A stretch of DNA of 64,000 bases from the NCBI GenBank assembly GCA_002471225.1, contig DKPO01000017.1, forward strand, positions 21,216 to 85,215, given 5' to 3'. Origin of the DNA: Porphyromonadaceae bacterium UBA7332 (lineage in GTDB: Bacteria; Bacteroidota; Bacteroidia; Bacteroidales; UBA7332). The translations under genes and the position numbers were made by a program. Below, piece by piece: positions 7,467-63,609 of this stretch. Numbering within the stretch: position 1 is the stretch's first letter; every line of letters starts with the position of its first letter. Below the pieces are notes generated by a model. That model did no database searches, had not been told where the DNA came from, and saw only the letters and a list, made by a program, of their open reading frames with translations.

Positions 7467-8279
7467 ATGATTATTCCAAAATTAAAACATACAGAATCGA
7501 ACAACTTTTTCCTAATGGCAGGTCCTTGTGTCATTGAAGGAGAAGAGATGGCGATGGAAATAGCAGAGAAAGTGGTTGCTATTTCAGACAAATTGCAAAT
7601 CCCGTATATCTTTAAGGGATCCTATCGTAAAGCAAACCGGTCAAGAATCGATTCATTTACAGGTATCGGAGATGAAAAAGCGCTTGAGATTCTTAAGAAA
7701 GTGGGCGAACGATTTGATATTCCTACCGTAACGGATATTCATTCGGCAGAGGAAGCTGCAATGGCTGCTAAATACGTAGATGTACTTCAGATTCCTGCCT
7801 TTTTATGTCGTCAGACAGACCTGTTGATTGCTGCGGCTCAGACAGGAAAAGTTGTGAACATCAAGAAAGGACAGTTCTTATCACCTGAATCGATGCAATT
7901 CGCAGTTCAGAAAATATGGGATTGCGGAAACCCGAATGCAATGATTACGGATAGAGGAACAACATTCGGATATCATGATCTGATTGTAGATTATCGGGGA
8001 ATTCCTCAAATGCAGAAGTTTGATTGTCCGGTTATTCTGGATGTAACACATTCACTTCAGCAACCCAATCAAACTTCAGGCGTGACCGGAGGTCTACCGG
8101 AACTGATAGAAACGATAGCTCGTGCCGGTGTGGTAGTGGGTGTTGATGGTTTGTTTATCGAAACTCATATGGATCCTTCGGTAGCTAAATCGGATGGAGC
8201 GAATATGCTTCGCCTTGATTTACTGGAATCATTGATGGAGAGACTTGTAGCTATTCGTAAAACAATAACTTCGTTTTAA
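7467..8279 (+). CDS. kdsA: 3-deoxy-8-phosphooctulonate synthase
   Basis: 270 aa with KdsA-like blocks: AGPCVIE, KGSYRKANRSRIDSFTG, DIHS...A, LQIPAFLCRQTDL, DVTHSLQ. Confidence 0.9.
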   Translation: MIIPKLKHTESNNFFLMAGPCVIEGEEMAMEIAEKVVAISDKLQIPYIFKGSYRKANRSRIDSFTGIGDEKALEILKKVGERFDIPTVTDIHSAEEAAMAAKYVDVLQIPAFLCRQTDLLIAAAQTGKVVNIKKGQFLSPESMQFAVQKIWDCGNPNAMITDRGTTFGYHDLIVDYRGIPQMQKFDCPVILDVTHSLQQPNQTSGVTGGLPELIETIARAGVVVGVDGLFIETHMDPSVAKSDGANMLRLDLLESLMERLVAIRKTITSF

Positions 8280-16177: not shown

Positions 16178-16251
16178 TAGGTCGCACTAAATTGCGGTGT
16201 ACATCGCGCAATTGTGCGACCTACTTCGCAATTTAGTGCGACGTACATCGC
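16178..16251. repeat. nested/alternative inverted repeats between two convergent terminators
   Basis: GTAGGTCGCAC (16178-88) pairs with GTGCGACCTAC. GTCGCACTAAATTGCG (16181-96) pairs perfectly with CGCAATTTAGTGCGAC (16226-41). GTACATCGC occurs twice as a direct repeat. Confidence 0.7.
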
Positions 16252-19203: not shown

Positions 19204-19359
19204 TTATTAGGCTTTAAATTTGTCTCTCCGACAAATCTTTTATTTAGTTGCAAAGATAATGTATTTGAACGATATGCTAATCAGAGAGAATATCAGTTTG
19301 CTGGCTTTAAACATAGTTTAAGTCTTTGATAATAGGGGAGATGCGCATTTTTGATAAAT

Positions 19360-19419
19360 AAAAAGAGTTTTCAACAATTAGTTTATAAGGATAAGTTATT
19401 AACAAATTGTTGAAAACTC
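19360..19419 (-). terminator. intrinsic terminator of the Lrp/AsnC gene
   Basis: Perfect 15-bp inverted repeat, GAGTTTTCAACAATT (19365-79) with AATTGTTGAAAACTC (19405-19), followed on the minus strand by TTTTTATTT. Confidence 0.65.
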
Positions 19420-19446
19420 GGCTATTTCAGGCTGTATTTAAACAGT

Positions 19447-19923
19447 TTAATCTTCGTTTGGAGCGTCCGGAATTGGTAATTGTCTTTTGAATGCTTCTTT
19501 GAAAGAGATTAAAGACTCAGTACCGGATAGACCGAGAGGCTGAAGTTTTGTATGAATGATTTCAAGCAAATGTTGATTGTTGCGTGCATATATTTTTATG
19601 AAAAGGTCATACTTACCTGTTGTGTAATGGCATTCCAAAACTTCAGGTATTTGAAAGAGTGCATCTACTACTTCAGAGAATCTGCTTGGATCTTTCAGGT
19701 ATAAACCCATAAAAGTACAGGTTTCATACCCTACCTTTGATGGTTCGATGGTAAACTCAGAGCCTGTAATGACTCCCATATTAATCAACTTTTGTACACG
19801 TTGATGTATGGCTGCACCGGAAACTCCGCATTCACGAGCTACTTCCAGAAATGGAACACGAGCGTTGCCAATAATGATTCGAAGGATTTTAACATCCAAA
19901 TTGTCTAATTGAAAAGAAGCCAT
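19447..19923 (-). CDS. Lrp/AsnC family transcriptional regulator
   Basis: MASFQLDNLDVKILRII...VPFLEVARECGVSGAAIHQRVQKL is an HTH_AsnC domain, followed by a C-terminal RAM/AsnC_trans_reg domain. The start was moved to the ATG at 19923. Confidence 0.9.
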   Translation of the reverse strand: MASFQLDNLDVKILRIIIGNARVPFLEVARECGVSGAAIHQRVQKLINMGVITGSEFTIEPSKVGYETCTFMGLYLKDPSRFSEVVDALFQIPEVLECHYTTGKYDLFIKIYARNNQHLLEIIHTKLQPLGLSGTESLISFKEAFKRQLPIPDAPNED

Positions 19924-20029
19924 AGGTTTTTTCGTTATAGTTATATACAAATATAGTAAAGAAAAGATGAATCTGTAAGAAATAAGGTTATAGTTTTTCG
20001 AGTATTATAATAAATATACGATCGGATAT

Positions 20030-20060
20030 AAAAAAAGCTGTTCCGAAGAACAGCTTTTTC
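20030..20060 (-). terminator. hairpin terminator after exbD
   Basis: AAAAAGCTGTTC-cgaa-GAACAGCTTTTT; symmetric A/T runs make it bidirectional. Confidence 0.7.
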
Positions 20061-20076
20061 ATATGTGAAATTGCGA

Positions 20077-20541
20077 TTAGTTTTTGCTAATAGCCGAGTA
20101 GTTGATTTTAAGTGCTTGTGCTTCACGCAATGCTTGCTTAATATCAACGATCACACCCATTTTAGTTTCAGCATCTACTTTCATAGATACAGTCATCAAT
20201 GGTTGATCTTCTTCTTTCATACTTTGACGCTCTTGTGCAATGTAATCTTGAATTTCGCTCACTTCAGCGAATTTATCGTTCAACTGAATACGAGTTTCAC
20301 TACCCATTTTTTTACGGAACTCTGCCGTTGGTTTCCCAGCGTAAATGAAGGTAACCAATGATTTTTTCTCCAACTTCTGAAGTTCTGTAGCGTGCGGAAG
20401 TTTAAATTGAACTTTCAATGTAACCTCACGCATTGTTGTTACGATCATAAAGAAGAAAAGAAGCGTAAAAATCAAATCGGGTAATGAAGAAGTATTCAAA
20501 GCTGGCATCTCGCGACCGCCTGATTTAGTGAATTTTCCCAT
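20077..20541 (-). CDS. exbD: biopolymer transporter ExbD/TolR family
   Basis: 154 aa. N-terminal LNTSSLPDLIFTLLFFFMIV is the typical ExbD TM segment, followed by a periplasmic domain. Confidence 0.85.
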   Translation of the reverse strand: MGKFTKSGGREMPALNTSSLPDLIFTLLFFFMIVTTMREVTLKVQFKLPHATELQKLEKKSLVTFIYAGKPTAEFRKKMGSETRIQLNDKFAEVSEIQDYIAQERQSMKEEDQPLMTVSMKVDAETKMGVIVDIKQALREAQALKINYSAISKN

Positions 20542-21131
20542 TATTTTTTCCCTCCATAGTTTTTAGGTTCCGCTTCAGAAATCATCTGAGGATAGATAGT
20601 AGCAACTGCTTTACGCTGAGCTTCATCTAACTCGTCAAATGTTTTACCGAATTTTCTTTTTGAAATTTCATTACGAATTTCGTTATATGCTGCAACAAGT
20701 TCATTTTGAACTTCGATGTATGCCTGGTATTCTGTACCGCGGTCATTTTGTAGAGAGATAACGTGTTTTTTGCTCACTTTCATAGGACCAAAGAACTCTA
20801 CATCTACAACTTCACGTTCCGGTAAGTTCGGATCATCGTTTTCATTTTTGATGAACTCAATTGCCTTTTTACGCAATTCGCCCAACTGCATCGGAGCACC
20901 ATTAACCATTAACTGATTGTTAGAGTTAATAAGAACTACCAAGATGTTACGTTCGTTCATTTCAACATCCTTTTTCTCTTGATCTTTTGGTACAGGAGGA
21001 GGTAGACGACGAGCCAAACCTTTATCTGTATCCATAGATGTTGTAATCAAGAAAAAGATAAGTAGCAAGAACGCGATATCGGCAGTTGAACTGGCGTTAA
21101 TTTCAGGTACTTTTTTCTTTTTTCTTGCCAT
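20541..21131 (-). CDS. exbD: biopolymer transporter ExbD/TolR family (second copy)
   Basis: 196 aa. [25 protein letters not shown] segment; overlaps the downstream exbD by 1 nt. Confidence 0.85.
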
Positions 21132-21175
21132 GTTGTTTTTTATTTATCAATTCGGGAGACATGCTCCCGAATTAT

Positions 21176-21637
21176 TTATTTTTTAATCAACTTAGATACG
21201 TTTGAGAAAAGAACAAGAATGATAGCAACTCCGATCATAAAGTATGTAGAGTAAAGCATCATATCTGCAATTTTCAATGTTCCCGGAACATTATCTAATC
21301 CATCGTATCCTGGCAAGTGAAGCGGAGTTCCGTCACCAATAGCATAAGCGCCACCAAGCACGGCAGCAAACAGAGCAATATTGATAACTGTACTCATTGC
21401 TTTTTTAGGAGTCTCTTTAACTGACATTCCAAACTGGAAGATTGCAAAACCAAAAGTTGCAACGATACCTACACCGATAAGGATATAGCCCCAGTTCAAT
21501 AATAATTCTGTATTCTTTGGTTCCAGAACTTCTGCGTTCGGATCAACATACCCGCCACCATAGTACAATCCTAAGACAACTACAGTAACTGCAAGCATTC
21601 CATAAAGAATCCAGTGTGCAATTTTACTGATTGACAT
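21176..21637 (-). CDS. hypothetical 4-TM membrane protein inside the exbB-exbD operon
   Basis: 153 aa with four hydrophobic segments and no recognisable motif. Spacing to exbB upstream is tight (8 nt). Confidence 0.6.
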   Translation of the reverse strand: MSISKIAHWILYGMLAVTVVVLGLYYGGGYVDPNAEVLEPKNTELLLNWGYILIGVGIVATFGFAIFQFGMSVKETPKKAMSTVINIALFAAVLGGAYAIGDGTPLHLPGYDGLDNVPGTLKIADMMLYSTYFMIGVAIILVLFSNVSKLIKK

Positions 21638-21645
21638 AGTCTAGA

Positions 21646-22446
21646 TTATTTTTTGTATTTAAGATTGTATTTGATAACAAGGTCAAGAAGAGAGATAGAA
21701 GAATCTTCCATATCGTTCAAGATGCTCTCAACTTTAGCAAGGATGTAGTTGTAGAATAATTGAAGAATCAAAGCTACGATCAAACCACCGATTGTTGTAA
21801 TCAAGGCTACTTTCATACCACCTGCAACAACTGTTGGAGAGATATCACCTACTTGTTGGATTTTGTCAAACGCTTCAACCATACCGATTACTGTACCCAA
21901 GAAACCTAGAGATGGAGCCATCGCGATGAATAGAGTGATCCAAGAAAGACCTTTTTCCAAAAGACCAGCTTGAACACCACCATAAGAGATAACTGATTTC
22001 TCAACTACGTCGATACCGTAATCCATTCTCATCAAACCTTGGTAGAAGATAGATGCAACTGGACCTCTAGTGTTACGACAAACAGTTTTAGCAGCTTCAA
22101 CATCTCCTTTTTCAAGAGCAGATTCAACGCCAGCTAAAAGTTTTTTAGTGTTAACCTCAGCAAGGTTCAAATAAATAATTCTTTCAATGATGAAAGCCAT
22201 ACCAAAGATAAGAGCGATCATTACGATAGACATAAAGAATGCGTTACCTTCGATAAATTTAGTTTTTAATGCTTTGTGAAGACCTCCTTCAACATCAACT
22301 GGAATCTCAGCTGCTTCTTCTACAGCTGCAGTTTGTTGAGCTACTTGTTCAGTTTGAGCAGGAGCTGCTTCTTGAGCGACAACGAATTGAGTTGTTCCCA
22401 TCATAAGGAAACCAGACATTGCTAGAATTGCAAATAACTTTTTCAT
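21646..22446 (-). CDS. exbB: MotA/TolQ/ExbB proton-channel family protein
   Basis: Signal peptide plus an A/Q/E-rich linker, then an ExbB core with LGFLGTVIGMVEAF and GGMKVALITTIGGLIVA. Confidence 0.9.
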   Translation of the reverse strand: MKKLFAILAMSGFLMMGTTQFVVAQEAAPAQTEQVAQQTAAVEEAAEIPVDVEGGLHKALKTKFIEGNAFFMSIVMIALIFGMAFIIERIIYLNLAEVNTKKLLAGVESALEKGDVEAAKTVCRNTRGPVASIFYQGLMRMDYGIDVVEKSVISYGGVQAGLLEKGLSWITLFIAMAPSLGFLGTVIGMVEAFDKIQQVGDISPTVVAGGMKVALITTIGGLIVALILQLFYNYILAKVESILNDMEDSSISLLDLVIKYNLKYKK

Positions 22447-22533
22447 CGTTCTTTAATTTTAGGTTTGTTTTATTGGTTTGTTACTATTTTAATTAATTTC
22501 TGCTTTATATCTGTCTTAAAATAACAGATTTGC

Positions 22534-22621
22534 GGAGTGAGGGGGATTCGAACCCCCGAAACGCTTTTGGCGTTTACACGCTTTCCAGGCGTGCCTCTTC
22601 AACCACTCGAGCACCACTCCC
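22534..22621 (-). tRNA. tRNA-Ser (anticodon GGA)
   Basis: Minus-strand sequence GGAGTGGTGCTCGAGTGGTTGAAGAGGCACGCCTGGAAAGCGTGTAAACGCCAAAAGCGTTTCGGGGGTTCGAATCCCCCTCACTCCG. It has a 7-bp acceptor stem, anticodon stem CACGC/GCGTG with loop CTGGAAA, a long variable arm AACGC/GCGTT and T-arm GGGGG-TTCGAAT-CCCCC. CCA is not encoded. Confidence 0.92.
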
Positions 22622-27616: not shown

Positions 27617-28181
27617 TGAACTGTGTATTAAAATTGTGATTTTGTTTATTAATTAGAATGCGAATCTAAGAAAAATAATTCTTAAAATCTTCGTGCATAC
27701 ATCAGTAACCACTATTTTTTATTATTTTAAATTCTATAATCTTTGTTTTTTACTTTTCTCAATCCATTTTGTGTGCGATTGTAAGCTATTTATGTTGATT
27801 CATATAAGTAATATGCCTTTTGAATAATAGATTTAATCTTATTGCTCGTTTGTACTAATAAATAGATGTTTTTCTGCTGAGTTTAGAGTTACGTTATGCA
27901 TGTTTTTGTATTAAGTATTTTTTATCTATAAACAGGGCTTTTAATAGGTGTCGGGATTATATTTTATCATGATTAAGTCTAGATTCCGTCTGTCTTAATA
28001 ATGAAAAGGGACGATAATATTTAATTTTGCATTTTGATAAAATGTATAAATAAAATGTTTCGAATATTTTATTATCACAAAAAACAGTTTAATTTTGGGG
28101 CCGAAGAATCTTTTGATGAAAACAAAACAATAACAGTTTAACTGTATAAGTGAAGATTTTTTATTGTCTTCGATCTTTTCA

Positions 28182-28189
28182 TACATTTG
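28182..28189 (+). promoter_or_regulatory. Bacteroidetes-type -7 promoter box
   Basis: TACATTTG lies 50 nt upstream of the ATG at 28239. Confidence 0.4.
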
Positions 28190-28238
28190 AATTTAATAAA
28201 TAAATCAGTATATCTAAAACACTTTAAAAAAACCAGTC

Positions 28239-41290: not shown

Positions 41291-41343
41291 ATCAATAGGA
41301 AAACGAAGTAATTTGGAGAGTAAAACAAAGGTATTTTCTCCAT

Positions 41344-41384
41344 AAAACGAAGGCATTTGGTATTTACCAAATGCCTTCGTTTTA
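41344..41384 (+). terminator. intrinsic terminator
   Basis: Perfect hairpin AAAACGAAGGCATTTGG-tatttа-CCAAATGCCTTCGTTTT. Confidence 0.8.
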
Positions 41385-41419
41385 TAATTGAAAGTACAAC
41401 GTTGTTAAAAGTGAATTTT

Positions 41420-41503
41420 ATCCTTCACATCCTTCACGGCAGGTTTAATACCCTGATTTTTAATTAGTAAAGTGTGTAGGATGGTGTAAGATGGGTGTAG
41501 GAT
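41420..41503. repeat. '2+3' short-repeat cassette, word ATCCTTCAC / GTGTAGGAT
   Basis: ATCCTTCAC occurs twice in tandem (41420-41437). A 36-bp spacer follows, then GTGTAGGATG, GTGTAAGATG and (G)GTGTAGGAT at 10-11-bp phasing (41474-41503). The latter are the imperfect reverse complement of the former. Confidence 0.8.
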
Positions 41504-41600
41504 ATAGAAAGCTGATTAATGTATTATATATCTGATTTTATGCCTCTTATGATCGGGGTGTCGGATAAAATCGTAAAATATTTCTTTAGTGAGGAATTTT

Positions 41601-41682
41601 GGTACGTATGAAAAATGTTTTACATAGGTATCTAAAGTTTTTTAGATACGTAGCAAAAATAATTTACATACGTATGTAAATC
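41601..41682. repeat. 82-bp AT-rich module with TACGTA-type and GTATCTAAA/TTTAGATAC inverted repeats (copy 1)
   Basis: GTATCTAAA (41628-36) pairs with TTTAGATAC (41641-49). By my ungapped count, 61 of 82 positions are identical to 63076-63157. Confidence 0.8.
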
Positions 41683-41713
41683 TGATTAGATAAGGCAAAA
41701 TTGGAAAAAAGCT

Positions 41714-41818
41714 CGTAACGATACAGTGTTTCTCTGAAAAGATACGGTATATCTTCGCAACGATACGGTATATCTTTTAAAAGAAACGGCGTATCTTTTC
41801 AGAGATACACCGTGTAAT
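41714..41818. repeat. five iteron-like units at exact 21-bp spacing
   Basis: GATAC lies at 41720, 41741, 41762 and 41804, with GAAAC at 41783. GATACGGTATATCTT occurs twice (41741-55 and 41762-76). The array is enclosed by a perfect 16-bp inverted repeat: TCTCTGAAAAGATACG (41731-46) with CGTATCTTTTCAGAGA (41790-805). Confidence 0.85.
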
Positions 41819-41822
41819 TTTG
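41815..41822 (+). promoter_or_regulatory. candidate -7 promoter box upstream of the 9-mer cassette
   Basis: TAATTTTG matches TAnnTTTG. No convincing -33 element was seen. Confidence 0.3.
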
Positions 41823-41875
41823 ACAATATCCGGATTTTTTTTAACTCTTACTACTAAAGCTTTTTTTTGCGTTTT

Positions 41876-42030
41876 ATCTGCAACATCTGCAACATCATCC
41901 GAAAACCCTTTGTGAATCGGGGTTTGATGCTGTTGCAGATGGTTGCAGATGGTTGCAGATGAAATTTCATCTGCAACGCGTAATTGTTTGTATTATACGT
42001 TTTTATATGTGTGTTGCAGATGTTGCAGAT
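41876..42030. repeat. 155-bp cassette with eight copies of the 9-mer GTTGCAGAT (both orientations)
   Basis: ATCTGCAAC x2 (41876-93); a 38-bp spacer containing CCTTTGTGAAT (41907-17); GTTGCAGATG x3 at exact 10-bp phasing (41932-61); inverted ATCTGCAAC (41969-77); GTTGCAGAT x2 (42013-30). Confidence 0.9.
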
Positions 42031-42073
42031 AGAACTTCAAATTTTGTTAGTGGTCAAACTAAGGTGATAAAAA

Positions 42074-42110
42074 AAGAGAGTGCTCAATATTGAACACTCT
42101 CTTTTTTTTT
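42074..42110 (+). terminator. strong hairpin plus T9 immediately after the repeat cassette
   Basis: GAGAGTGCTCAA-ta-TTGAACACTCTC followed by TTTTTTTTT, with an A-run upstream, so it could work in both directions. Confidence 0.7.
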
Positions 42111-42771
42111 ATTTTCCACAAAACAAAACTGAAATTCTATATAGTATGGAATGTCAAAGTTTATGCTTTGAGCGACTTCCAGGATAGACAATTATCCTTT
42201 GCTAATATTATAAGTTATACTGATTTTTGTGATTTTAAAGGTCGTAAGAGTTAGGTTTTTGAGTTTTTTTCATCTTAAAATGTATCGGGTTTTCTCAAGT
42301 TCATGTATAACTCTTGCTAAATCAGTTGCTGTGATTTTTAAATATAAGCAAAACTAAGGAAAATATTTTAATTATTAAAGAGAAATCGCGGGAATTTTCA
42401 AACACTCAGGATTTAGTCTATAAAATAATGCCGATCATGGAGGTTTTAAATGGCTGTTTTTTCTTTTGCTATTCGAATATTAGATTTGTATTTAATTACT
42501 CTTACCGTATAATACGCAATTGTAAGTGTGATTATTATTTGCTTGCAGGAGATCTTGATCAGGATCAAAAATAGGTTGTATCCCAAATCATAGATGTTGT
42601 AAAACAATTATTTAAATAATAGCAAGTTGAATGTGAATTTAATTATATTTTCGTATAATTGCGGAAGTGATTTTCAGCTGATCTATGCTGGAAGTATTGA
42701 CAGGTAATCGGGAATCGCCATGAAAATGTAGCTAATTTGACTTTAAATATATTACCTAATAATGTAAAACG

Positions 42772-44019
42772 ATGAATTTTAGACGATCTGACTTCCTGCT
42801 ATTAATGTTCCTGCTAATTCTTCTCAGCTCGTGTGTAAATCCAAACAAAAGGCTGGCACAAGAAGCATTGGAGACCCTATTCATTCAACCGATAAAAGTC
42901 GGAGAGCTTAGAGATAATATTAAATCCATAAAATATATTCAGTTAGAAACCTTAGAAGAATGTATGATTGGTGAGGTTTCTGAAGTGAAAGTTCAGGATG
43001 ATTATCTTATTATACTTGATGTTTTGAAAAAAGTATATTTATTTGAGAAATCTACAGGGCGCTTTATCAGACAAATAGGGTCTATCGGTCAAGGTGCAGG
43101 CGAATATGTGTCTGTAAATACAATTTCTTTATCGCCGGATAAAGATGGTATTTATATTTTTGATAATGCACGTGGTTATTTGTGTTTCTATAGTTGGAGC
43201 GGGGAGTGCATTTCTCAAAAGAATCTATCTAATTCTCTTTTGTATCAAGAGGTAGGCAGGCTTACCGTTTTGCCTGAACAAAACATAGTAGTAAATACGG
43301 TTATGATGCCTGTCAGGATGTCGGGTAATAGTGTATTAGAAGATTATAATCAGTTTCATATAGATTTGGATGTGGATTCTATTGTAAAAATGGATATTCC
43401 TATTTCTGTATATCGTGATGAGAAATACTTTTCTTCCTACATGGTTAATCCCAACAGTTTGTATGAAGATCAGCTTTCTGTTCTTAAGCTGGCTTGTGAT
43501 ACCATTTTTATTTATGATTATACTGAGTCGAAGCAGATTGTTCCGCGTTACAAAATTCAACTTCCTGATTCTTATAAATATCCGACCCCCGACCTGCTGA
43601 TAGGTAAAGAGCAGCTGCCGGAATCTACTCTTATTTTATTAAATGGATCCGGATACTTCAGTACTTTTACGCATATGTACGAGAATGCGAATATGATTTA
43701 TTTTCGTTGTGCAAATCTAATGGAAGGTCATGCGTTGGTTAACAAAAATACGGGGCAGGGGGTGCTTATTCCTAGAACATGGAATGGGGATATATCTATT
43801 AACGCAAGTTGCGAAAGAGTACTTCGGGGTGAAGGAATATTTGAAATAAAAGGAGCTTATGGAGCTGAATTTATTTCTGTTTTGGATACGGACTATATGT
43901 CTTGCATCCAATCGGCTTGCAAAGAAAAGAGGGATATTGAATTACCTTCTGACTTGAAAATGGTTTTGGAAAATTCTACAGAAGAGTCGAATCCTTGTAT
44001 CGTGATCTATGAGGTCTGA
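42772..44019 (+). CDS. hypothetical lipoprotein, 6-bladed beta-propeller-type family (paralog 1)
   Basis: 415 aa with lipobox LILLSSC. N-terminal block IKSIKYIQLET...YLFEKSTGRFIRQIGSIGQGAGEY; the C-terminus is ...STEESNPCIVIYEV. The family call rests on my recollection of Bacteroides DUF5128-type lipoproteins. Confidence 0.6.
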   Translation: MNFRRSDFLLLMFLLILLSSCVNPNKRLAQEALETLFIQPIKVGELRDNIKSIKYIQLETLEECMIGEVSEVKVQDDYLIILDVLKKVYLFEKSTGRFIRQIGSIGQGAGEYVSVNTISLSPDKDGIYIFDNARGYLCFYSWSGECISQKNLSNSLLYQEVGRLTVLPEQNIVVNTVMMPVRMSGNSVLEDYNQFHIDLDVDSIVKMDIPISVYRDEKYFSSYMVNPNSLYEDQLSVLKLACDTIFIYDYTESKQIVPRYKIQLPDSYKYPTPDLLIGKEQLPESTLILLNGSGYFSTFTHMYENANMIYFRCANLMEGHALVNKNTGQGVLIPRTWNGDISINASCERVLRGEGIFEIKGAYGAEFISVLDTDYMSCIQSACKEKRDIELPSDLKMVLENSTEESNPCIVIYEV

Positions 44020-44114
44020 TTGTCAGGATCAGAATAGTGATACCCTTTGATATTACTGTTGAGGAATTGTGTGAAATGTATTGGATTGAAAATCTATTAT
44101 CTAAATAATATTTT

Positions 44115-45347
44115 ATGAAAAACGTATTGAAGATATCTCTTGCTGCTTTTGTTTTTATAGCTCTCAGCTCGTGTGCAAATCCGGATAAAAAACGGGCAAA
44201 AGGAGAGTTGGAAGTTATATCTGTTCAACCTATAGGGGATGGTGATCTCAGAGATGATATTAAATCTATTAAATATGTACAACTCGAAACAACAGATGAA
44301 AGTGTTTTTGGGGAAATAACGCATATGCTGGTTCATGAGGATAAGATTATTATAAAAGATAACTTATCAAAGATCTATCTGTTTGATAAGCAGACCGGTC
44401 GGTTTATCCATTTAATAGGTAGTATGGGTGGAGGAGCGGAAGAATATGCGAATGCGGGGAGTATAGCTTTGAATCCTTCCAAAAACGGGATTACATTATG
44501 GGACAGGAAATTGGGGAAGCTTATTTCTTATGATTGGGATAATAATCTGCTTTTTAGTATGAACCTGGAAGTGCTTAATGAGGCTTGTCCTGAAGATGTT
44601 TATCTGCTGGATGAGAATACTGCAATTTTTAGCACGAGTATTGCAGGAAAAGGAGCATACAGCGATCCGTTATATGATCCGTATATTTATCTGGTTGTAG
44701 ATATTAAGAATGATAGAGTTCTGGATACATTTTTATCTAGAAAGCCTTTTACAGGGATGAAAAGTACCTTTACGCCTTATTTGAAAAAACCGGGAAATAT
44801 TAATGGCAATCAGTTTATGACAATAAAAGTCGCAAATGATACTTTGTTTAACTGGACACAAGAGGATGGATTTAAGCCTTCATGTAAAATAGGTCTTCCG
44901 GACTCTTATAGGTTTGCTTCGTTAGATCTGATCAACGAACAATCCGGTTTCCCTGAATTAGGATCTATATTAGTTAGAGAGTCAGGGTATTTTAGTGGGT
45001 TTAATACGCATTTTCAGACTGATAATTATATCTATCTTTCTTGTTGTGCTTTTAAGGATGGTGCAGTTCTGTTGAATAAAAATAATCTGACAGGAAAGAT
45101 ACTTCCCTGGGGATGGGGTAATGATGAGTCCGTAGATGCGAATTGTGAACGGATTTTTCGGGGAAAAGGAATGTTTAAGATTTATGCGGCTTCTGATAAT
45201 GAGTTTATAGGAGTTTTTAATGACTATTCAGCGACTGAAACTATGATTAAAGATAAAAAGGATATTCAGATACCTGAGGAGTTAAAAGAGATTTTAGAAA
45301 AATCTACAGAAGATTCCAATCCTTGTATTGTGATCTATGAAGTCTGA
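44115..45347 (+). CDS. hypothetical lipoprotein, 6-bladed beta-propeller-type family (paralog 2)
   Basis: 410 aa with lipobox FIALSSC. Collinear with the upstream gene (IKSIKYVQLET...YLFDKQTGRFIHLIGSMGGGAEEY; C-terminus ...STEDSNPCIVIYEV). Confidence 0.6.
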   Translation: MKNVLKISLAAFVFIALSSCANPDKKRAKGELEVISVQPIGDGDLRDDIKSIKYVQLETTDESVFGEITHMLVHEDKIIIKDNLSKIYLFDKQTGRFIHLIGSMGGGAEEYANAGSIALNPSKNGITLWDRKLGKLISYDWDNNLLFSMNLEVLNEACPEDVYLLDENTAIFSTSIAGKGAYSDPLYDPYIYLVVDIKNDRVLDTFLSRKPFTGMKSTFTPYLKKPGNINGNQFMTIKVANDTLFNWTQEDGFKPSCKIGLPDSYRFASLDLINEQSGFPELGSILVRESGYFSGFNTHFQTDNYIYLSCCAFKDGAVLLNKNNLTGKILPWGWGNDESVDANCERIFRGKGMFKIYAASDNEFIGVFNDYSATETMIKDKKDIQIPEELKEILEKSTEDSNPCIVIYEV

Positions 45348-48837: not shown

Positions 48838-48905
48838 TTTCAATTGTCATTAATTGCTTGTTTTAAATATAATAAGGAGTATATATTAGTAGTAACTCCT
48901 ATTGA

Positions 48906-48939
48906 AGTGTCAGACTTTTGGGTCTGGCACTTTCTTTTT
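48906..48939 (+). terminator. intrinsic terminator after the GH110-like gene
   Basis: AGTGTCAGAC-ttttg-GGTCTGGCACT (10 bp including one G-U) followed by TTCTTTTT. Confidence 0.65.
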
Positions 48940-49187
48940 AATAATGATTTTGTGTTTTATAAAAAATATAAATTTTTCAGGCTTATTTCTTCTCGGCGTT
49001 TTTATTGTTTGCGTGTTAAAATTAACTGTGCTATTGATTGCTTTATTCGTTTTGTAGTTGTGCGTTTTTGGCATTAGTTTTATTTAAAGTGAAAATCATC
49101 TTAAAAGTATCTCTCAAATAGGGCTTATTTATATGTTAAATGTGAAAAAATAAATACGATATAAGTTTGAATATTAATTTAAGTTTA

Positions 49188-49195
49188 TATATTTG
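49188..49195 (+). promoter_or_regulatory. candidate promoter (-7 TATATTTG with -33 TTTG at 49166-69)
   Basis: It has the same TATATTTGC box and the same 18-nt spacing to an upstream TTTG as the box at 50048. Confidence 0.45.
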
Positions 49196-49404
49196 CCGCC
49201 GTGATATTCTGAATAACTCAGATGTATTATGATGAATGATTGCTTTGGAAAAATCAAATTGGTAACTTATTTGAATAAATAATAACTCAAATGTGTGAAT
49301 AAATATATATATGTTGACATCATAAATTATTCTTATTAATCTGAAGATATATAATAAATATTCTTATTAATCTAATTATTTCATAAACTAAACTCTAATC
49401 ATGC

Positions 49405-49518
49405 ATGAAAAAAGAATCTAGAAACATGCTCTTACTTCTCTCCGGAGTGCTAAGTGCATATCCTGGTCATTCATATAATATAAGTATGATACTATCTAAC
49501 AAGTTAAGATCAAGTTAG
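49405..49518 (+). other. 37-codon ORF resembling only the signal peptide of a SusC-type protein; possible 5' relic or leader
   Basis: Encodes MKKESRNMLLLLSGVLSAYPGHSYNISMILSNKLRSS*. It is preceded by a 21-bp exact copy of the sequence upstream of the SusC start (CTAATTATTTCATAAACTAAA) and the same ATGCATGAAAA start context. A hairpin terminator follows. Confidence 0.35.
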
Positions 49519-49554
49519 TCGAAGTTACAGTTTATAACTACAAAAAAATAAGTT

Positions 49555-49597
49555 CCCATTTTGACCTATATTTGCCGGTCTGAAATGGGGCTTTTTT
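49555..49597 (+). terminator. hairpin plus T-run after the mini-ORF
   Basis: CCCATTTTGACC...GGTCTGAAATGGG (one bulge) followed by GCTTTTTT. Confidence 0.5.
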
Positions 49598-50047
49598 AGA
49601 AATACTTTCTGCGCTTGATTTTTAAACGTATGGTTGAATCCTGATACTGTGTCTCGTGAGTCATAACGAGATTCAACTGTGGCTCACTATTGAATGGAAA
49701 TCGAATTTAATGAACGAAATCAGTGCGTTATCAGATTTTATAGGTTGTGTAATTAATTGGCTATTTGATGGTTTCGAAACACGGATGGGCATAAATCCCA
49801 TCCCTACGGCGATTAATATGAAGCATTGAAAAATATTTTACGCTGTCGTAAAGCTTTGAAACTGTATATAACGCTATCGCTTACAGATTATAAGTCCATA
49901 TTGTAACCTATAAACTTGTTTACAGTCTCTTTTTTTTATTTTGATTGTAATTTACTGAAAAATATTCAGTTAATATAGTTTATTTTTATATGTAATAATA
50001 TTATTGATAAAATTAAGATATTTTCTTTGTGATGATAAATATTGTTC

Positions 50048-50055
50048 TATATTTG
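50048..50055 (+). promoter_or_regulatory. candidate PUL promoter (-7 TATATTTG with -33 TTTG at 50026-29)
   Basis: Matches TAnnTTTG with TTTG 18 nt upstream. It lies 192 nt upstream of the SusC ATG. Confidence 0.5.
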
Positions 50056-50246
50056 CAGCGTATTACAATTGAATTAAAAAATAACGATTAATCAGAAAGC
50101 GGTATTCATTTACAGCTAATTAAAATCTAATACTCTATTTAAAGATTGAAGAATTGATTGGGAGAGAGATGAGTTTTTTGAATAGAGAACTGAATAAAAA
50201 TAAATGTTTTTACTAATTATTTCATAAACTAAAACCATTTTAATGC

Positions 50247-60333: not shown

Positions 60334-60403
60334 ATAAACTCAGATCAGATATAACCTTAACAAATAAATTGAAATTAGGTTCTTCTGATACCGAACCGAT
60401 CGT

Positions 60404-60907
60404 TTATTTGGTTATAGGCTTTAAAATGCGTGTCATCATAAATGATTGTTTATGGAATATCAATACAGGGGATGAAACACCTACTACTAAGGCTATTAAT
60501 ATAAAAATAGCAGTCAAACCATTTTTGAAAGCATCTACCACTAACGAGACATAAAGATCCGGATCGTCACAGCGTATAAATTTAGCAAATGAAAGGAACA
60601 TTTTATACGCATACATTCCCGGAATCATAGGTAAAAGTGATGGAAAAGTAAATACTTCATTCGGACAATGGATAAGTTTTGCAAAAACAAAGCTTAAAAT
60701 GCCGATCAGCATTGCGGAGAAAAATGTAGCTGTAGCAATGTCAAGATCCGTAGCATGTAATAAATAATAGCGAAAGCCATGACCGATTGCTGCTAATACC
60801 CCGGATGCTATAATTGCTTTCTTTGGCGGATTTGATATTACAGCAAATCCGATTGCGGCAATAGCGGCAAAAAAACCGTCGATAAATATATTGATTAAAA
60901 ATTCCAT
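60404..60907 (-). CDS. threonine/serine exporter family protein, small subunit (ThrE_2-type)
   Basis: 167 aa and all-hydrophobic (5 TM). It starts 4 nt after the larger ThrE-type gene, the usual split arrangement. Confidence 0.75.
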   Translation of the reverse strand: MEFLINIFIDGFFAAIAAIGFAVISNPPKKAIIASGVLAAIGHGFRYYLLHATDLDIATATFFSAMLIGILSFVFAKLIHCPNEVFTFPSLLPMIPGMYAYKMFLSFAKFIRCDDPDLYVSLVVDAFKNGLTAIFILIALVVGVSSPVLIFHKQSFMMTRILKPITK

Positions 60908-60911
60908 TGTT

Positions 60912-61685
60912 CTATAATTTATTTATTCCTAAAATAGACATAGTGAAGAATAATCCGATTGAAATGCATATAATAAGTATAGTTGCATTGATCAAACGAG
61001 ACATCCCGGCAAGGACGAAACCTTCAAGAATATCCATGATTGAATTAATCAAAGGTACACCGGGAATAAGAAATAATACACTTGTAGCTAAAGCAATCTG
61101 AGGAGTATCACCTAAACTCCAGATAACTCCGGCTGCAGTGATAATAGATGAAATAAAAGCAGCAGAAATAAACACAATGAAATGATTGAAGTGATATTTC
61201 ATCATTTCCTGACGAGCAAAAAATGCAACAAGCGTTCCTATGAATACTAACAACATGGCTATCCAATCACCTCCGAATAACTTACAGAAAGAGGCGTTAG
61301 CACAAGCAACCAAAAATAAAACGACCCATCGGGATAATCGTGGAATAGACATTATTTCGTCGTATTTACTCCTAATAACACTTAGGGAGATAGGTTGATC
61401 ATAAGCTTCCCAGCTTAGTGCACTTAATTCGGAAATAATGTTGAAATTCAGAGCCATAGGTTTGATGCGTCTGATTCCGGTGAGTGTCTCTCCGGTAGAT
61501 TTCTCTTTAATCATCATTGAGATGTTTTTCTGAAAGATTGTTAGATGGGCTTCGTATCCCCCAGCCTCAGCTATTCGAACAACATTTCGTACAATACGTG
61601 CCGTGTGTGAACCGGCCCCCATTAGACTAATTGCATAATCCAATAAAAAATCGGACATTTCATGAATACTTTCTTTTCTTTCCAT
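60912..61685 (-). CDS. threonine/serine exporter family protein, large subunit (ThrE/DUF1212-type)
   Basis: The ATG at 61685 is preferred (MERKESIHEMSDFLLDYA..LM.AG..T.R). Soluble N-terminal half plus a 5-TM C-terminal half. Confidence 0.78.
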   Translation of the reverse strand: MERKESIHEMSDFLLDYAISLMGAGSHTARIVRNVVRIAEAGGYEAHLTIFQKNISMMIKEKSTGETLTGIRRIKPMALNFNIISELSALSWEAYDQPISLSVIRSKYDEIMSIPRLSRWVVLFLVACANASFCKLFGGDWIAMLLVFIGTLVAFFARQEMMKYHFNHFIVFISAAFISSIITAAGVIWSLGDTPQIALATSVLFLIPGVPLINSIMDILEGFVLAGMSRLINATILIICISIGLFFTMSILGINKL

Positions 61686-62036
61686 ATTGATGGACTCTAT
61701 TGTTTTTTGAGGGTGCAAATTTAGTTTTAAATTGAATTAATTGAGTTAAGGATCGATTTTTAGTTGTGCTTAAAATATCAGTAAAGTATTAATAATATTA
61801 AATACATGGACACCTAATGATATCTCGTTTTACATTTTTGATATTTTACAAAGGTCTTGTTGATTTGCATTCAGAGTGTTAGGTTATAAACTTGTTACCT
61901 GGAAGCTATTTTAGATCATACTCATCTTTTTTTCTATATTTTGTAATTAAATACAAGAAAATTATATTGCTTTTATATATTTATTTTATCTTTAGGGCTT
62001 TACGTGTTTTTATTAATAATTAATACTTTATCTAGT

Positions 62037-62972
62037 ATGGAAGAATTGAAAGAATATGATTTTAAAGGCGTTGTCCTTTCTGGTTTTCTAATGCTTTTCG
62101 TGTGTTTAGCCCTTTTGGCATTTGCGGTCTTTGCCTTTTTTCAAATAGATAGTTGGGGAGGATTTGCTCCGATTATTGGAGGGCTTAGCGTAATTCTATT
62201 CTTTATATTACTTATTGGATTTACGATGATAGAACCAAATGATCTTCGGGTCATGGTCTTTTTCGGTAAATATAGAGGGACATTGAAGAGTAATGGGTAT
62301 TTTTGGGTGAATCCGTTTTATACGAAAACCAAACTAACCTTTCGTGCACGCAATCTGGATATTCAGCCTATTAAAGTAAATGATAAAAATGGTAATCCAA
62401 TTATGATTGGATCTGTATTGGTTTGGCGTATTAAGGATTCATATAAGTGTATGTTTGATATTGATAGCTCTTCAATGACAACGAGTGTGCAAGGGCAACA
62501 ACAAACCAATCGGATGAAAGCGTATGAAGAGTTTGTTGCCATTCAATGTGATGCAGCGTTGCGTAGTCTTGCCGGACATTATCCGTATGATTTGCTTGAC
62601 AATCAAAAGCATGAGATCACTTTGCGGGATGGTGGAGAAGAGGTGAATGAAGAATTAGAAAGAGCGATCAATGAGCGTTTGGCTTTAGCCGGAATTGAAG
62701 TGGTTGAAGCCCGGATTAATTATCTGGCTTATGCTCCTGAAATTGCGGCTGTCATGTTACGTCGTCAACAAGCAGAGGCTATCATTGCAGCCCGTGAGAA
62801 AATTGTAGAAGGAGCTGTTTCTATGGTCGATATGGCTTTACATCAACTAAAAGAAAAGCAGGTTGTGGAATTGACTAACGAGCAAAAGGCTGCAATGGCA
62901 AGTAACCTTATGGTTGTTTTATGTTCAGATGAACCGGTTGCACCTATGGTCAATACAACAAGTGAAAAGTAG
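62037..62972 (+). CDS. SPFH/band-7 domain membrane protein
   Basis: ATG at 62037 (the track start at 62004 is GTG). Two N-terminal TM segments, then an SPFH core (V.P.....V..FG.Y.G.....G..W.NP) and a C-terminal A/E-rich coiled region (AAVMLRRQQAEAIIAAREKIVEGAV). Confidence 0.8.
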   Translation: MEELKEYDFKGVVLSGFLMLFVCLALLAFAVFAFFQIDSWGGFAPIIGGLSVILFFILLIGFTMIEPNDLRVMVFFGKYRGTLKSNGYFWVNPFYTKTKLTFRARNLDIQPIKVNDKNGNPIMIGSVLVWRIKDSYKCMFDIDSSSMTTSVQGQQQTNRMKAYEEFVAIQCDAALRSLAGHYPYDLLDNQKHEITLRDGGEEVNEELERAINERLALAGIEVVEARINYLAYAPEIAAVMLRRQQAEAIIAAREKIVEGAVSMVDMALHQLKEKQVVELTNEQKAAMASNLMVVLCSDEPVAPMVNTTSEK

Positions 62973-63075
62973 TTTTGTATTGATTGAGCATTGAAACGAA
63001 TTGAATGACAGTAAGGTATTAAATCTGTCAACCAATACCAGTATAAGTCAATTTATTTAGCTGTATTTTTAATTT

Positions 63076-63157
63076 GATACGTATTAAAATATTTTTTCAT
63101 AGGTAGTAAAATATATTTAGATACGTATTAAAAAATATTTTCGAAGGTATCTAAATC
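63076..63157. repeat. 82-bp AT-rich module (copy 2), homologous to 41601-41682
   Basis: Same length, with 61 of 82 positions identical in ungapped alignment. It contains TTTAGATAC (63117-25) pairing with GTATCTAAA (63147-55). Confidence 0.8.
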
Positions 63158-63324
63158 CCGGGAGATAAGACAGATTTTCATCGGAAGGCATTTCTTTAGC
63201 AGAACATAGGTTTGTTTTGCTATAGGAGTGCCTTTTATGGCTGCTAAACGCTCCAACCGTCAGACTGAATCTATCCAAAGATATACGGCATCTTTTGTAC
63301 ACAAAGAATATATTTGCGGGTTTT

Positions 63325-63479
63325 ATTTGCAACATTTGCAACAAATCTTCAGATGCCTTTGTGGATGCGCTTTTAGGAGTGTTGCAAATGGTTGCAAATG
63401 GTTGCAAATGAAATTATTTGCAATGTTGTATCTTGTTGATTAACAGTGATCTGTTCCTTGTGTTGCAAATGTTGCAAAT
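63325..63479. repeat. 155-bp cassette with eight copies of the 9-mer GTTGCAAAT; same geometry as 41876-42030
   Basis: ATTTGCAAC x2 (63325-42); a 38-bp spacer containing CCTTTGTGGAT (63356-66); GTTGCAAATG x3 (63381-410); inverted ATTTGCAAt (63416-24); GTTGCAAAT x2 (63462-79). Offsets of 0, 31, 56 and 137 match the first cassette. Confidence 0.9.
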
Positions 63480-63609
63480 AAAATGACTTTTTTATCTTGT
63501 GAAGCATATATTAGCGAATTCAGTTTTTGCCAACTAAGAGTTTAGATGTATAACCCGGAATTTGTCGAACTATATTATCTTTGCCTATCTAAAAGGAGAA
63601 AGTTTAACT

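Follow-up and report, generated by a model that had tools for sequence, protein, structure and literature searches.

What does a gap filled with phased short repeats do among the housekeeping genes of a Bacteroidales chromosome? The gap at 41291-42771 of the window, a 64-kb stretch of Porphyromonadaceae bacterium UBA7332 that was analysed as a whole, had been described in an earlier note as resembling a replication origin, a partition site, a recombinase arm-site array or a highly structured RNA. On balance we favour an origin of a particular kind: the part at 41386-42110 is probably a gene-less cluster of replication-origin-type DNA-binding modules, which would act through an initiator in trans in the manner of phage-type origins. 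The origin option held up in kind, on account of the 2 + 3 arrangement of inverted 9-mers, the geometry and GTTGCA core shared with phage LunBun, the counterparts in five viral contigs and the plan of the SaPI origins, and it failed for a chromosomal oriC.

Anatomy of the repeat-dense gap

The gap is flanked by a Na+/solute symporter gene on the left and by the first DUF5128 gene on the right. Its longest ORF on either strand encodes 54 aa, in line with the previous observation that none reaches 60 codons, and Pfam at E ≤ 1 matched none of eight small ORFs (40-54 aa; seven in the gap, the rest at its left edge). For the window, Pfam was run on the ORFs of at least 100 aa that are not nested in a longer ORF of the opposite strand and on a 130-aa gene that is cut off by the end of the window. 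Only housekeeping functions were found among the non-nested ORFs, and genes for rep, par, integrase and transposase were absent from this set not only next to the gap, as had been noticed before, but also elsewhere in the 64-kb window. Furthermore, tblastn with seven primase or helicase proteins revealed no primase or helicase remnants or pseudogene fragments in the window, and within this range no initiator gene lies beside the cassettes for at least 20 kb. Because the window encodes housekeeping genes only, the cassettes described below are regarded as orphan origin-type cassettes. The partition-site option fell with the lack of par genes in the window, and the recombinase option with the lack of an integrase. 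A partition centromere of the parS/parC/sopC type was rejected, since parA/parB, parM/parR and tubZ/tubR are missing from the window, and an attachment site with arm-type sites was rejected since Pfam detected no tyrosine or serine recombinase domain in any window ORF analysed. The element matches neither a plasmid nor an IS, and a blastn comparison of the complete gap with the PLSDB plasmids and with the INPHARED phages gave no match at E ≤ 1e-5.

All four repeat modules described earlier (A to D) and the hairpin with its T9 run were confirmed in place and are far beyond chance. The repeat-dense part (41386-42110, 725 bp) contains two iteron cassettes (A and D) and two phased arrays (B and C), bounded by two predicted bidirectional terminators. 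On the left, a hairpin at 41342-41385 has perfect 21-bp arms (100% complementary) with 2 nt between them and A and T runs on either side, and is probably a bidirectional terminator after the symporter gene. On the right, a hairpin at 42069-42108 has 20-bp arms that are 95% complementary (42069-42088 and 42089-42108) and is preceded by A7 and followed by T9, which gives it the shape of a bidirectional terminator, its likely role at this border. The rest of the gap (42109-42771) is AT-rich, without phased repeats, and lies outside the repeat element, upstream of the first DUF5128 gene.

Cassettes A and D, whose iterons are given here on the plus strand, follow a common plan of two copies, a spacer of 36-38 nt, three inverted copies and then more copies, with GTGWAGGAT as the iteron word in A and GTTGCAGAT in D. 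Cassette A begins with two contiguous ATCCTTCAC iterons at 9-bp spacing (41420-41437), followed by a 36-nt spacer (41438-41473) and by the three inverted iterons GTGTAGGATG, GTGTAAGATG and GTGTAGGAT (41474-41503). A distal degenerate iteron, GTGTCGGAT at 41558-41566, was missing from the first list of repeats; it raises the count to 2 + 3 (+1), and through this extra copy cassette A shares the plan of cassette D. Exact matches to ATCCTWCAC numbered four against 0.77 expected, a count reached in 0 of 100 shuffles. In cassette D, two contiguous ATCTGCAAC iterons (41876-41893) are separated from three GTTGCAGATG iterons at 10-bp spacing (41932-41961) by a first spacer of 38 nt (41894-41931), which has its own inverted repeat (GAAAACCC...GGGGTTTG). 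A single ATCTGCAAC iteron at 41969-41977 forms a palindrome with 13-bp arms with the preceding copy, and an AT-rich second spacer of 35 nt (41978-42012), a candidate unwinding region, leads to two GTTGCAGAT iterons at 9-bp spacing (42013-42030). The resulting 2 + 3 + 1 + 2 iterons are exactly the eight copies of GTTGCAGAT at 41876-42030; there are 0 elsewhere in the 64 kb (0.62 expected, reached in 0/100 shuffles). GC content is 31% in the 36-nt spacer of A and 30% in its other spacer, 45% in the first D spacer and 26% in the second, the window mean being 37%. Module B (41597-41684, 25% GC) consists of four 18-bp palindromes with TACGTA at the centre (TTTACATACGTATGTAAA type), spaced by 22 bp and with alternating purine-pyrimidine cores; one of them, at 41663-41680, is perfect. 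Module C (41713-41818) comprises five AGATAcggtaTATCT-type dyads at 21-bp spacing, where the tandem period of 21 bp covers 4.0 copies (41713-41797) and the inverted fifth unit extends to 41818.

A second copy in the window

The earlier note had given 27617-28238 and 48838-50246 as the only other gaps above 600 bp. A fourth long gap, at 62973-63609, had escaped notice, as the gene that follows extends past the window end; in it lies a second copy of the element, at 63020-63500 and 21 kb from the first. Module B' (63070-63160) has TACGTA-type units at 22-bp spacing, and cassette D' (63325-63480, plus strand) has eight iterons at offsets 0, 9, 57, 67, 77, 91, 138 and 147, which are those of D except for the sixth (93 in D). 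Seven of the eight D' words read GTTGCAAAT or ATTTGCAAC, the exception being ATTTGCAAT, and all eight iterons differ between D and D' by one and the same G>A change; homogeneity is thus 8/8 in D and 7/8 in D'. Spacer lengths were kept (38/38, 8/6 and 35/37 nt in D/D') at only ~60% identity, and overall the two copies are 73% identical. The shared offsets, the uniform G>A change and the diverged spacers, together with the same plan built on another word in cassette A, suggest that the geometry is conserved while the sequence is free. A MITE or IS end was rejected, given the 73% identity of the two window copies and the lack of terminal inverted repeats at the borders, where no target duplications were seen either. 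A stand-alone array of three 22-bp palindromes was also found at 16178-16250, between apparent convergent terminators and two convergent gene ends.

The AT-rich DNA and opposing 9-mer arrays superficially resemble DnaA-box arrays, as would be expected of the chromosomal replication origin oriC. This explanation is nevertheless extremely improbable and already contradicted, since the element occurs twice, at a distance of 21 kb, the cassettes do not share one word, and the gap has no cluster of DnaA boxes (TTATCCACA-like) but a single match with one mismatch at 42112-42120. In addition, cumulative GC skew climbs steadily across 38-59 kb with no switch, and Pfam found no copy of dnaA or dnaN near the gap among the window ORFs.

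Variation among strains and relatives

The suspicion that the repeats are slippage junk unique to one strain does not agree with their distribution, as every strain sampled has the element, a paralogue lies in the window and relatives of it are found in other Bacteroidales. Among the strains, copy number varies by whole units: the inverted iterons of cassette A number four or five in other strains, the distal iteron at 41558 is present there in two copies, and strain L064 lacks one copy from each of two iteron sets without compensation.

The uncompensated loss in L064 argues against one or more structured non-coding RNAs with stems formed from the inverted words, a reading that we consider very unlikely. 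The region 41865-42112 does have a folding energy of -101.8 kcal/mol (z = -10.7, and z = -5.9 for copy 2), cassette D is followed by the predicted terminator, and a weak GibS-like match lies on the minus strand at 42067-42220. However, five forward and three reverse copies in D' have changed together though at most three pairs can form, a fixed T-T mismatch occurs in every stem that cassette A would form, the spacer hairpin of D is missing from D', and no consistent promoter precedes the cassettes. The structured-RNA option also found no Rfam family in the gap at gathering score, and at E ≤ 10 only chance-level hairpin matches were obtained there (miRNA models, GibS); the sole Rfam 15 match above gathering score in the window was a tRNA (22533-22620). 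An FopS/GibS sRNA for the hairpin and T9 is unsupported, with GibS scoring 28.6 bits against a threshold of 115.

Related arrangements were found on two other Bacteroidales contigs. One of them (L002) carries four 18-bp palindromes at 22 bp and two arrays at 21-22 bp, and among its cassettes one is made of GGTTGCAAT and another is built on AATCAGCAC. In the second (L055), GTTGCAGAT cassettes come after a 22-bp array; both there and for D' in copy 2, a gene promoter follows 70-100 nt downstream of the cassette. The full plan is kept at a third locus, in a species with an 89% identical symporter (amino acids). A metagenome scan for three tandem GTTGCNNATG units returned 45 loci, nearly all of them one-directional microsatellites, and among these only L055 was related. 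In relatives with 71-89% identical proteins, the element was absent from the symporter and Band_7 neighbourhoods, that is, from the same junction, and the elements are located at synteny breakpoints with respect to related genomes.

The position upstream of promoters in L055 and copy 2 could be taken to indicate operator arrays, bound by a transcription factor that regulates the downstream DUF5128/glycan-utilisation genes or a small RNA, and phasing of dyads at 21-22 bp is typical of dimeric regulators. Just after module C, at 41814-41821, lies TAATTTTG, which from the promoter consensus we take to be Bacteroidetes -7-like. Yet the modules of copy 1 are split from the next gene by a strong putative bidirectional terminator and 660 bp, the downstream gene differs from case to case (DUF5128, YgjP-like, SusC), and the stand-alone array is flanked by the ends of two convergent genes. 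For a regulator, eight sites arranged in opposing sets are moreover unusual, and they fit origin plans, so that we hold operators to be decidedly improbable.

Could the element be an origin region in decay, left by a phage or integrative element that has lost its genes, and have no present function? The lack of replication and mobility genes in the whole window, the location at synteny breakpoints and the copy-number variation from strain to strain would all be explained in this way. Decay would be expected to erode the words first, however, whereas the iterons are homogeneous in both cassettes and exactly spaced despite the divergence of the spacers, the full plan is found at two loci of the window and at the third locus in the species with the similar symporter, and the tblastn searches showed that no pseudogene fragments are left. 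We therefore regard such a relic as unlikely.

Spread or expansion by slippage and recombination as a selfish or structural repeat (a MITE, a REP/BIME-like element or a minisatellite) with no dedicated binding protein appears distinctly unlikely. It would account for copy-number polymorphism in whole units and for the stand-alone palindrome array, and in more than 15 samples short-read contigs end within the elements, which thereby account for assembly breaks at these two places in the species. There is also a precedent for a repeat-built MITE in Porphyromonas: BrickBuilt of P. gingivalis is described as a MITE that contains a minisatellite (PMC4596501). Like the window elements, it is an intergenic Bacteroidales element organised around short tandem repeats (PMC4596501). 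In contrast to this minisatellite within a MITE, the window elements have no terminal inverted repeats that we could find, their two copies are only 73% alike and their repeats are opposing sets of 9-mers. Slippage, in addition, leaves unexplained why one word occurs in inverted and direct copies and why the layout matches that of gaps next to VapE genes.

Counterparts in phages and satellites and a possible mode of action

The layout closest to that of the window was found in Paenibacillus phage LunBun, where the VapE primase-helicase gene is followed directly on its 3' side by a 285-bp gap; the GTTGCA cores of this gap have the offsets <0 <9 >52 >64 <86, compared with <0 <9 >53 >63 >73 <93 in cassette D. 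The core is shared, and so are the succession and the positions of the first five iterons; the leader (TTTAyCTGCAACATCTGCAACA) and the spacer hairpin (GAAmCCC...GGGTTTGA) are similar as well. The two differ in that the phage cassette adjoins the helicase gene while the window cassettes are orphan, and in that the phage gap has no arrays of the B/C type. Identity is only ~75% over 76 nt; a search of the whole phage collection gave E = 7, and one of a small local database gave 3e-4. By BLAST statistics the likeness is weak and not significant alone, and the case for it rests on layout. The gap 3' of VapE in the Paenibacillus larvae phages of the LunBun group is presumably the origin. A known annotated element was matched only loosely, the phage counterpart being an unannotated gap.

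Sets of inverted 9-mers (GTGAAGGAT or GTTGCAGAT) were identified in five metagenomic viral contigs (L206, L209, L169, L217 and L222), directly 3' of or between genes for D5_N/DUF5906, Toprim-D5_N, VapE and Prim-Pol, or PHROG primases. The VapE relatives of L169 belong to Chloroflexota, so the shared words are not host-specific and do not tie that phage to Bacteroidales. In Staphylococcus aureus phage 2638A and Clostridium phage phiCT453A, clusters of inverted iterons in the gaps 3' of VapE homologues surround AT-rich DNA of the ACATACGTAT type, which resembles module B, and Bacteroides phage BT50 has opposing sets of GGATAGATA iterons around ~100 nt of AT-rich DNA. Phage records with VapE homologues numbered 105 for Bacteroides and 24 for Phocaeicola. 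The Bacteroides/Parabacteroides phages BT50, BO668P2 and PM21P2 showed no clear 9-mer cassette immediately 3' of their helicase genes. Among the pattern scans of viral sequences, two copies of GTTGCANATG gave two matches, both irrelevant, AAATCTGTCAACCAAT gave 22 chance-level matches without extended similarity, and TGCAAC-N30-60-GTTGCARAT x2 gave mostly chance matches in coding regions, in addition to L127.

Inverted repeat clusters were also detected beside terminase genes, and architecture alone is therefore no proof of an origin. In viral contig L137, GTTGCAGAT sets lie between a late-activator-like gene and the small terminase gene, and an unbiased scan revealed a cluster in L228 between the genes for the terminase subunits. 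Both cases would suit a packaging-signal mimic, i.e. pac/cos-like arrays bound by phage small terminase that promote packaging of the adjacent chromosome. The word in L228 is, however, a low-complexity palindrome, and both LunBun and the five viral contigs place their sets next to primase-helicase rather than terminase genes, hence we give packaging a very low probability.

Returning to the origin-type reading, in lambda-type and iteron-plasmid origins an AT-rich region adjoins helically phased sites of ~19-22 bp, four or five in number. Modules B and C resemble these, with four dyad-symmetric units spaced by 22 bp in the one and five spaced by 21 bp in the other, all within AT-rich DNA, but no O-type or Rep-type initiator gene lies around or over the window arrays and DnaA boxes are lacking. 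In SaPI/PICI satellites, the origin is served by a self-loading Rep helicase that has a winged-helix origin-binding domain. These origins are non-coding and consist of short identical iterons whose word differs from element to element; in SaPIs, 6-12 iterons directly downstream of rep surround an AT-rich centre, with at least two per side in opposite directions (PMC9371898). The window cassettes likewise have 6-8 iterons in opposing sets and a word that differs between cassettes, and A and D both show at least two identical short iterons on each side of a spacer, the arrangement used to recognise such origins (PMC9371898). Unlike primase-helicase origins, which adjoin their initiator gene, usually right on its 3' side, they are flanked by symporter and DUF5128 genes, with no rep within at least 20 kb, whereas the SaPI origin is immediately 3' of rep. 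The iterons, moreover, have 9-10 nt here and 5-6 nt in SaPIs, and the first D spacer is not AT-rich (45% GC), so that only the second (26% GC) suits melting.

How might such modules work? In phages and satellites, they are placed beside genes for self-loading primase-helicases (VapE, D5, P4-alpha and SaPI-Rep types). In cassettes A and D, identical 9-mers face each other in opposite directions across spacers of 35-38 bp, a geometry that would allow an initiator with a winged-helix origin-binding domain to assemble to the left and right of DNA that can be melted. The helically phased dyad-symmetric sites of modules B and C, in AT-rich DNA of alternating purines and pyrimidines, may be auxiliary binding or unwinding regions, and the putative terminators on both sides would insulate the unit from transcription. 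As there is no initiator gene in cis, the cassettes can only act via a protein in trans, from a resident or infecting mobile element, and their most probable role is to bind an initiator delivered in this way. Upon binding, either local replication would fire or the initiator would be soaked up, and the cassettes may be a decoy, a hitchhiker or a relic. What the sequences show directly is the repeats with their conserved geometry, the paralogue, the polymorphism among strains, the phage counterparts next to primase-helicase genes and the lack of such genes in the window, whereas binding of a protein, which protein this would be and any effect on replication or defence are inferred.

Soaking up of the initiator would be the natural counterpart of phage-encoded resistance (PER), in which cloned origins of Lactococcus phage phi50 and Streptococcus thermophilus phage Sfi21 block the cognate phage; for Sfi21, a 302-bp non-coding origin blocks phage DNA accumulation in a copy-number-dependent manner (PMC6356513). 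PER and the proposed decoy share a host-borne short non-coding origin that lacks an initiator gene and acts in trans on phage replication. PER, whose effect depends on copy number, was shown for origins on multicopy plasmids or in prophages, though, while the window elements are single-copy loci of the core chromosome. A single chromosomal copy would be a weak titrator. More speculatively, insulated arrays of phage-type origin cassettes without genes could form a functioning system in Bacteroidales chromosomes, one that captures the primase-helicase initiators of infecting phages or resident islands, which we think rather unlikely. In such a system, the invader's own origin would be starved or the neighbouring glycan-utilisation genes would be locally over-replicated, and the rapid switching of words (GTTGCAGAT, GTTGCAAAT, GGTTGCAAT, GTGWAGGAT) and the changes in copy number would reflect an arms race with initiator specificity.

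Full-text literature searches, on the iteron words as well as on decoy or orphan origins, returned no account of such chromosomal elements. To our knowledge, opposing-iteron origins are known only in phages, satellites and plasmids, beside the gene for their reader protein. Here the design occurs in the core chromosome without a reader gene, at two loci within 22 kb, with intact words, exact spacing, strain-level change in copy number and predicted terminators on either side. If a protein in trans does read the cassettes, they would amount either to a defence made of DNA alone, with no protein of its own, through titration of initiators from phages or islands, or to hitchhikers that act in cis and are amplified upon replication of a helper; neither is an established feature of gut Bacteroidales. 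The elements also mark synteny breakpoints and provide concrete bait sequences for binding proteins.

Repeat modules between two terminator hairpins

The gap at 41291-42771 contains each of the repeat modules described in the earlier note and is free of longer ORFs, as that note had claimed: the longest on either strand encodes 54 aa, and none of eight small ORFs tested, seven of them internal to the gap and one bordering it on the left, matched Pfam. Module A combines paired iterons at 41420-41437 (two copies of ATCCTTCAC) with an inverted triplet of GTGTAGGATG-type copies at 41474-41503. Module B (41597-41684) consists of four TACGTA-centred 18-bp palindromes at 22-bp spacing, module C (41713-41818) is a 21-bp array with the fifth unit inverted, and module D (41876-42030) holds exactly eight copies of GTTGCAGAT. 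The right hairpin (42069-42108, arms of 20 bp) is preceded by A7 and followed by T9. A perfect hairpin with 21-bp arms (41342-41385) closes the left side, thus the repeat-dense 725 bp lie between two bidirectional terminators. Both words occur much more often than expected by chance, with 8 copies of GTTGCAGAT against 0.62 expected and 4 of ATCCTWCAC against 0.77, both reached in 0 of 100 shuffles. With one more, degenerate copy at 41558, module A follows the plan of D: two copies, ~37 nt, three inverted copies, ~35-50 nt and one or two more. Of the D spacers, only the second is AT-rich.

The window is an ordinary Bacteroidales chromosome and its closest genomes are Bacteroidales MAGs. A Na+/solute symporter gene borders the gap on one side; on the other lie two DUF5128 propeller genes, a GH109-like gene, a GLAA-B gene and a SusC/SusD pair, and the remaining non-nested ORFs (100 aa or longer) are all housekeeping. 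No such ORF anywhere in the window encodes a primase, helicase-initiator, Rep, Par, integrase or transposase, which extends the earlier remark that rep, par, integrase and transposase genes are missing next to the gap. Furthermore, tblastn with seven phage primase/helicase proteins found no remnants in the window, and blastn (E<=1e-5) no plasmid or phage match to the gap. The element is not oriC, as DnaA boxes do not cluster in the gap and the cumulative GC skew keeps rising across the region with no turning point. The two propeller genes (DUF5128/DUF4934, six-bladed; 42772-45347) are tandem paralogues with ~100 nt of their 3' ends 80% identical. Another gap of 1.4 kb (48838-50246; 28-34% GC), upstream of a SusC-like gene, has neither phased repeats nor a cassette and presumably serves the polysaccharide-utilisation locus as an extended regulatory or leader region.

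Conservation of the plan with turnover of the words

Through the tail of a strain-variant contig, a second element was found at 63020-63500, flanked by genes for a Band_7 and a YgjP-like protein. It occupies a 638-bp gap (62973-63609) that the earlier list of long gaps had missed, the next gene running off the window. The element comprises a TACGTA-type array at 22-bp spacing (63070-63160), an imperfect long hairpin with T's after it (about 63185-63245) and a D-type cassette, D' (63325-63480). The eight D' iterons start at 0, 9, 57, 67, 77, 91, 138 and 147, those of D at 0, 9, 57, 67, 77, 93, 138 and 147. All eight D' words (GTTGCAAAT) carry the same G>A change relative to D, and spacer length is retained in all three spacers despite an identity of only ~60%. 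Two more Bacteroidales contigs have related elements. In the MAG contig L002, from a species with 89% symporter identity to the window, four 18-bp palindromes of TCCGATGCGCATCGGA type at 22-bp spacing lie ~2.6 kb beyond the symporter gene, together with two more arrays at 21-22 bp, a GGTTGCAAT cassette and the beginning of a AATCAGCAC / GTGCTGATT cassette, where the contig ends. In the Prevotella-like contig L055, a 22-bp array precedes GTTGCAGAT cassettes located just upstream of susC. The plan is thus conserved, and words may vary provided all copies within one cassette change together; every cassette word fits GT-N4/5-GAT. Between the two GTTGCAGAT sub-cassettes of L055 (277-369) are two tandem 43-bp units, REP-like in appearance, each with a GGGGACGCCyCGTCCCC hairpin.

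These comparisons bear on two alternatives. The cassettes fold strongly, as would any inverted repeat, but a structured RNA built from the inverted words is very unlikely: five forward copies changed together with three reverse ones where only three pairs are possible, natural variants drop copies without compensation, cassette A would carry a fixed T-T mismatch and the spacer hairpin of D is missing from D'. The Rfam check proposed in the earlier note gave no family at gathering scores in the gap and only chance-level hairpins at relaxed thresholds, which rejects a known RNA family. On the minus strand at 42067-42220, sub-threshold and non-significant matches to GibS (28.6 vs 115 bits) and antisense_SR1 (29.1 vs 45 bits) suggest that the hairpin with its A/T runs could also end a short minus-strand transcript. 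Operator arrays are likewise improbable, given that a terminator and 660 bp separate the modules from the next gene, that the downstream genes are unrelated across three loci and that a solitary 22-bp palindrome array sits between convergent gene ends. This array (16178-16250; three 22-bp units, each a TCGCACAATTGTGCGA-like palindrome), between the terminators of convergent sulfotransferase and pseudouridine synthase genes, may be a solitary B-type module. For B-type arrays, MITE or REP-like spread is possible.

Phage counterparts beside initiator genes

When viral contigs were scanned for two doubled words, matches were mostly chance or coding, but ~10 contigs have the word in non-coding DNA as opposing sets separated by 55-100 nt. 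In L169, probably a Chloroflexota phage contig, a GTTGCAGAT and a GTTCCAGAT cassette separate a VapE-like helicase gene from a Prim-Pol primase gene; in L206 and L209 a D5_N/DUF5906 primase-helicase gene (800-900 aa) has the cassette directly on its 3' side, as do primase genes (PHROG annotation) in L217 and L222. Words common to the cassettes and viral contigs are not host-specific. The two L169 cassettes are adjacent (4436-4700) and differ at one word position; hence multi-word origin regions occur in phages too. Similar clusters beside terminase genes in contigs L137 and L228 would suit a packaging-site mimic, a reading we consider hardly probable.

Among isolated phages, relaxed blastn with cassette D matched 23 Paenibacillus larvae phages. 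The LunBun match lies in a 285-bp gap directly 3' of a 'virulence-associated protein E' gene, with GTTGCA cores at <0 <9 >52 >64 <86 compared with <0 <9 >53 >63 >73 <93 in D, and leader and spacer hairpin are also alike; by BLAST alone the similarity is not significant (E=7 in the full phage collection). LunBun VapE has homologues in S. aureus phage 2638A and Clostridium phage phiCT453A, and the gaps after these also contain opposing iteron clusters, here around AT-rich, module B-like DNA of ACATACGTAT type. Members of this VapE family occur in phage records of Bacteroides (105) and Phocaeicola (24); one of these Bacteroides phages, BT50, has opposing GGATAGATA iterons around ~100 nt of AT-rich DNA, in a different gap. 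After these presumed origin iterons and just before the early genes, BT50 (20958-21165) carries two ~97-nt direct repeats, 92% identical and 111 nt apart, with GC-rich hairpins in each.

Phased arrays comparable to B and C occur in lambda and plasmid iteron origins. The best reading of cassettes A and D is as origin-type iteron arrays for primase-helicase initiators, and of B and C as putative phased auxiliary arrays of the iteron-origin kind. The arrangement beside phage initiator genes is that of SaPI origins, in which 6-12 iterons, at least two per side in opposite directions, surround an AT-rich centre immediately downstream of rep and are read by the winged-helix domain of a self-loading helicase (PMC9371898). 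The replication origin considered earlier is therefore supported in kind, as orphan phage-type cassettes, and not as a working replicon.

The architecture, its conservation under word turnover, the phage counterparts next to initiator genes and the lack of such genes in the window are observed; binding by a protein, the nature of that protein and the effects of binding are inferred. The initiator must act in trans, which leaves three readings. As a decoy, a non-coding origin in the host would block the phage, and a non-coding phage origin does so experimentally (PER; PMC6356513). As a hitchhiker, the element would be amplified on each replication of a helper element. Simple decay of a relic is argued against by perfect word homogeneity, by spacing kept exact although spacers diverged, and by two insulated copies with a third in another species; this evidence does not separate decoy from hitchhiker. 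The function of the cassettes is testable and potentially important.

Strain variation and rearrangement

All ten contigs with an identical symporter, from different samples, end 34-494 nt past its stop codon, most within modules A-C, and both DUF5128-gene contigs start at 41950, inside the GTTGCAGATG triplet; likewise most short-read contigs with Band_7 end within the second element. Strains that can be compared differ by whole units: A has 3, 4 or 5 copies of GTGTAGGATG, and the D' of strain contig L064 has 2 copies instead of 3 and 1 instead of 2 (two iterons lost). Strain L007, with flanking genes 98.6% identical, diverges completely after module B. At 7880-7967 (~41690 in the window) it carries, inverted, TAAATCTGTCAACCAATwCCAGTATAAGTCA, the motif preceding the B-type array of the second element at 63033-63063, which points to modular rearrangement between elements. 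In relatives, other genes occupy the symporter and Band_7 junctions, thus the elements lie at synteny breakpoints. Relatives L074-L076 have ExbB-ExbD-ExbD-AsnC-Band_7 and then convergent ThrE genes, whereas in the window (19200-22450, 60400-62972) some 42 kb separate the AsnC/Exb block from Band_7, and the ThrE genes are on the opposite flank of Band_7; this is a rearrangement with breakpoints close to the repeat elements.
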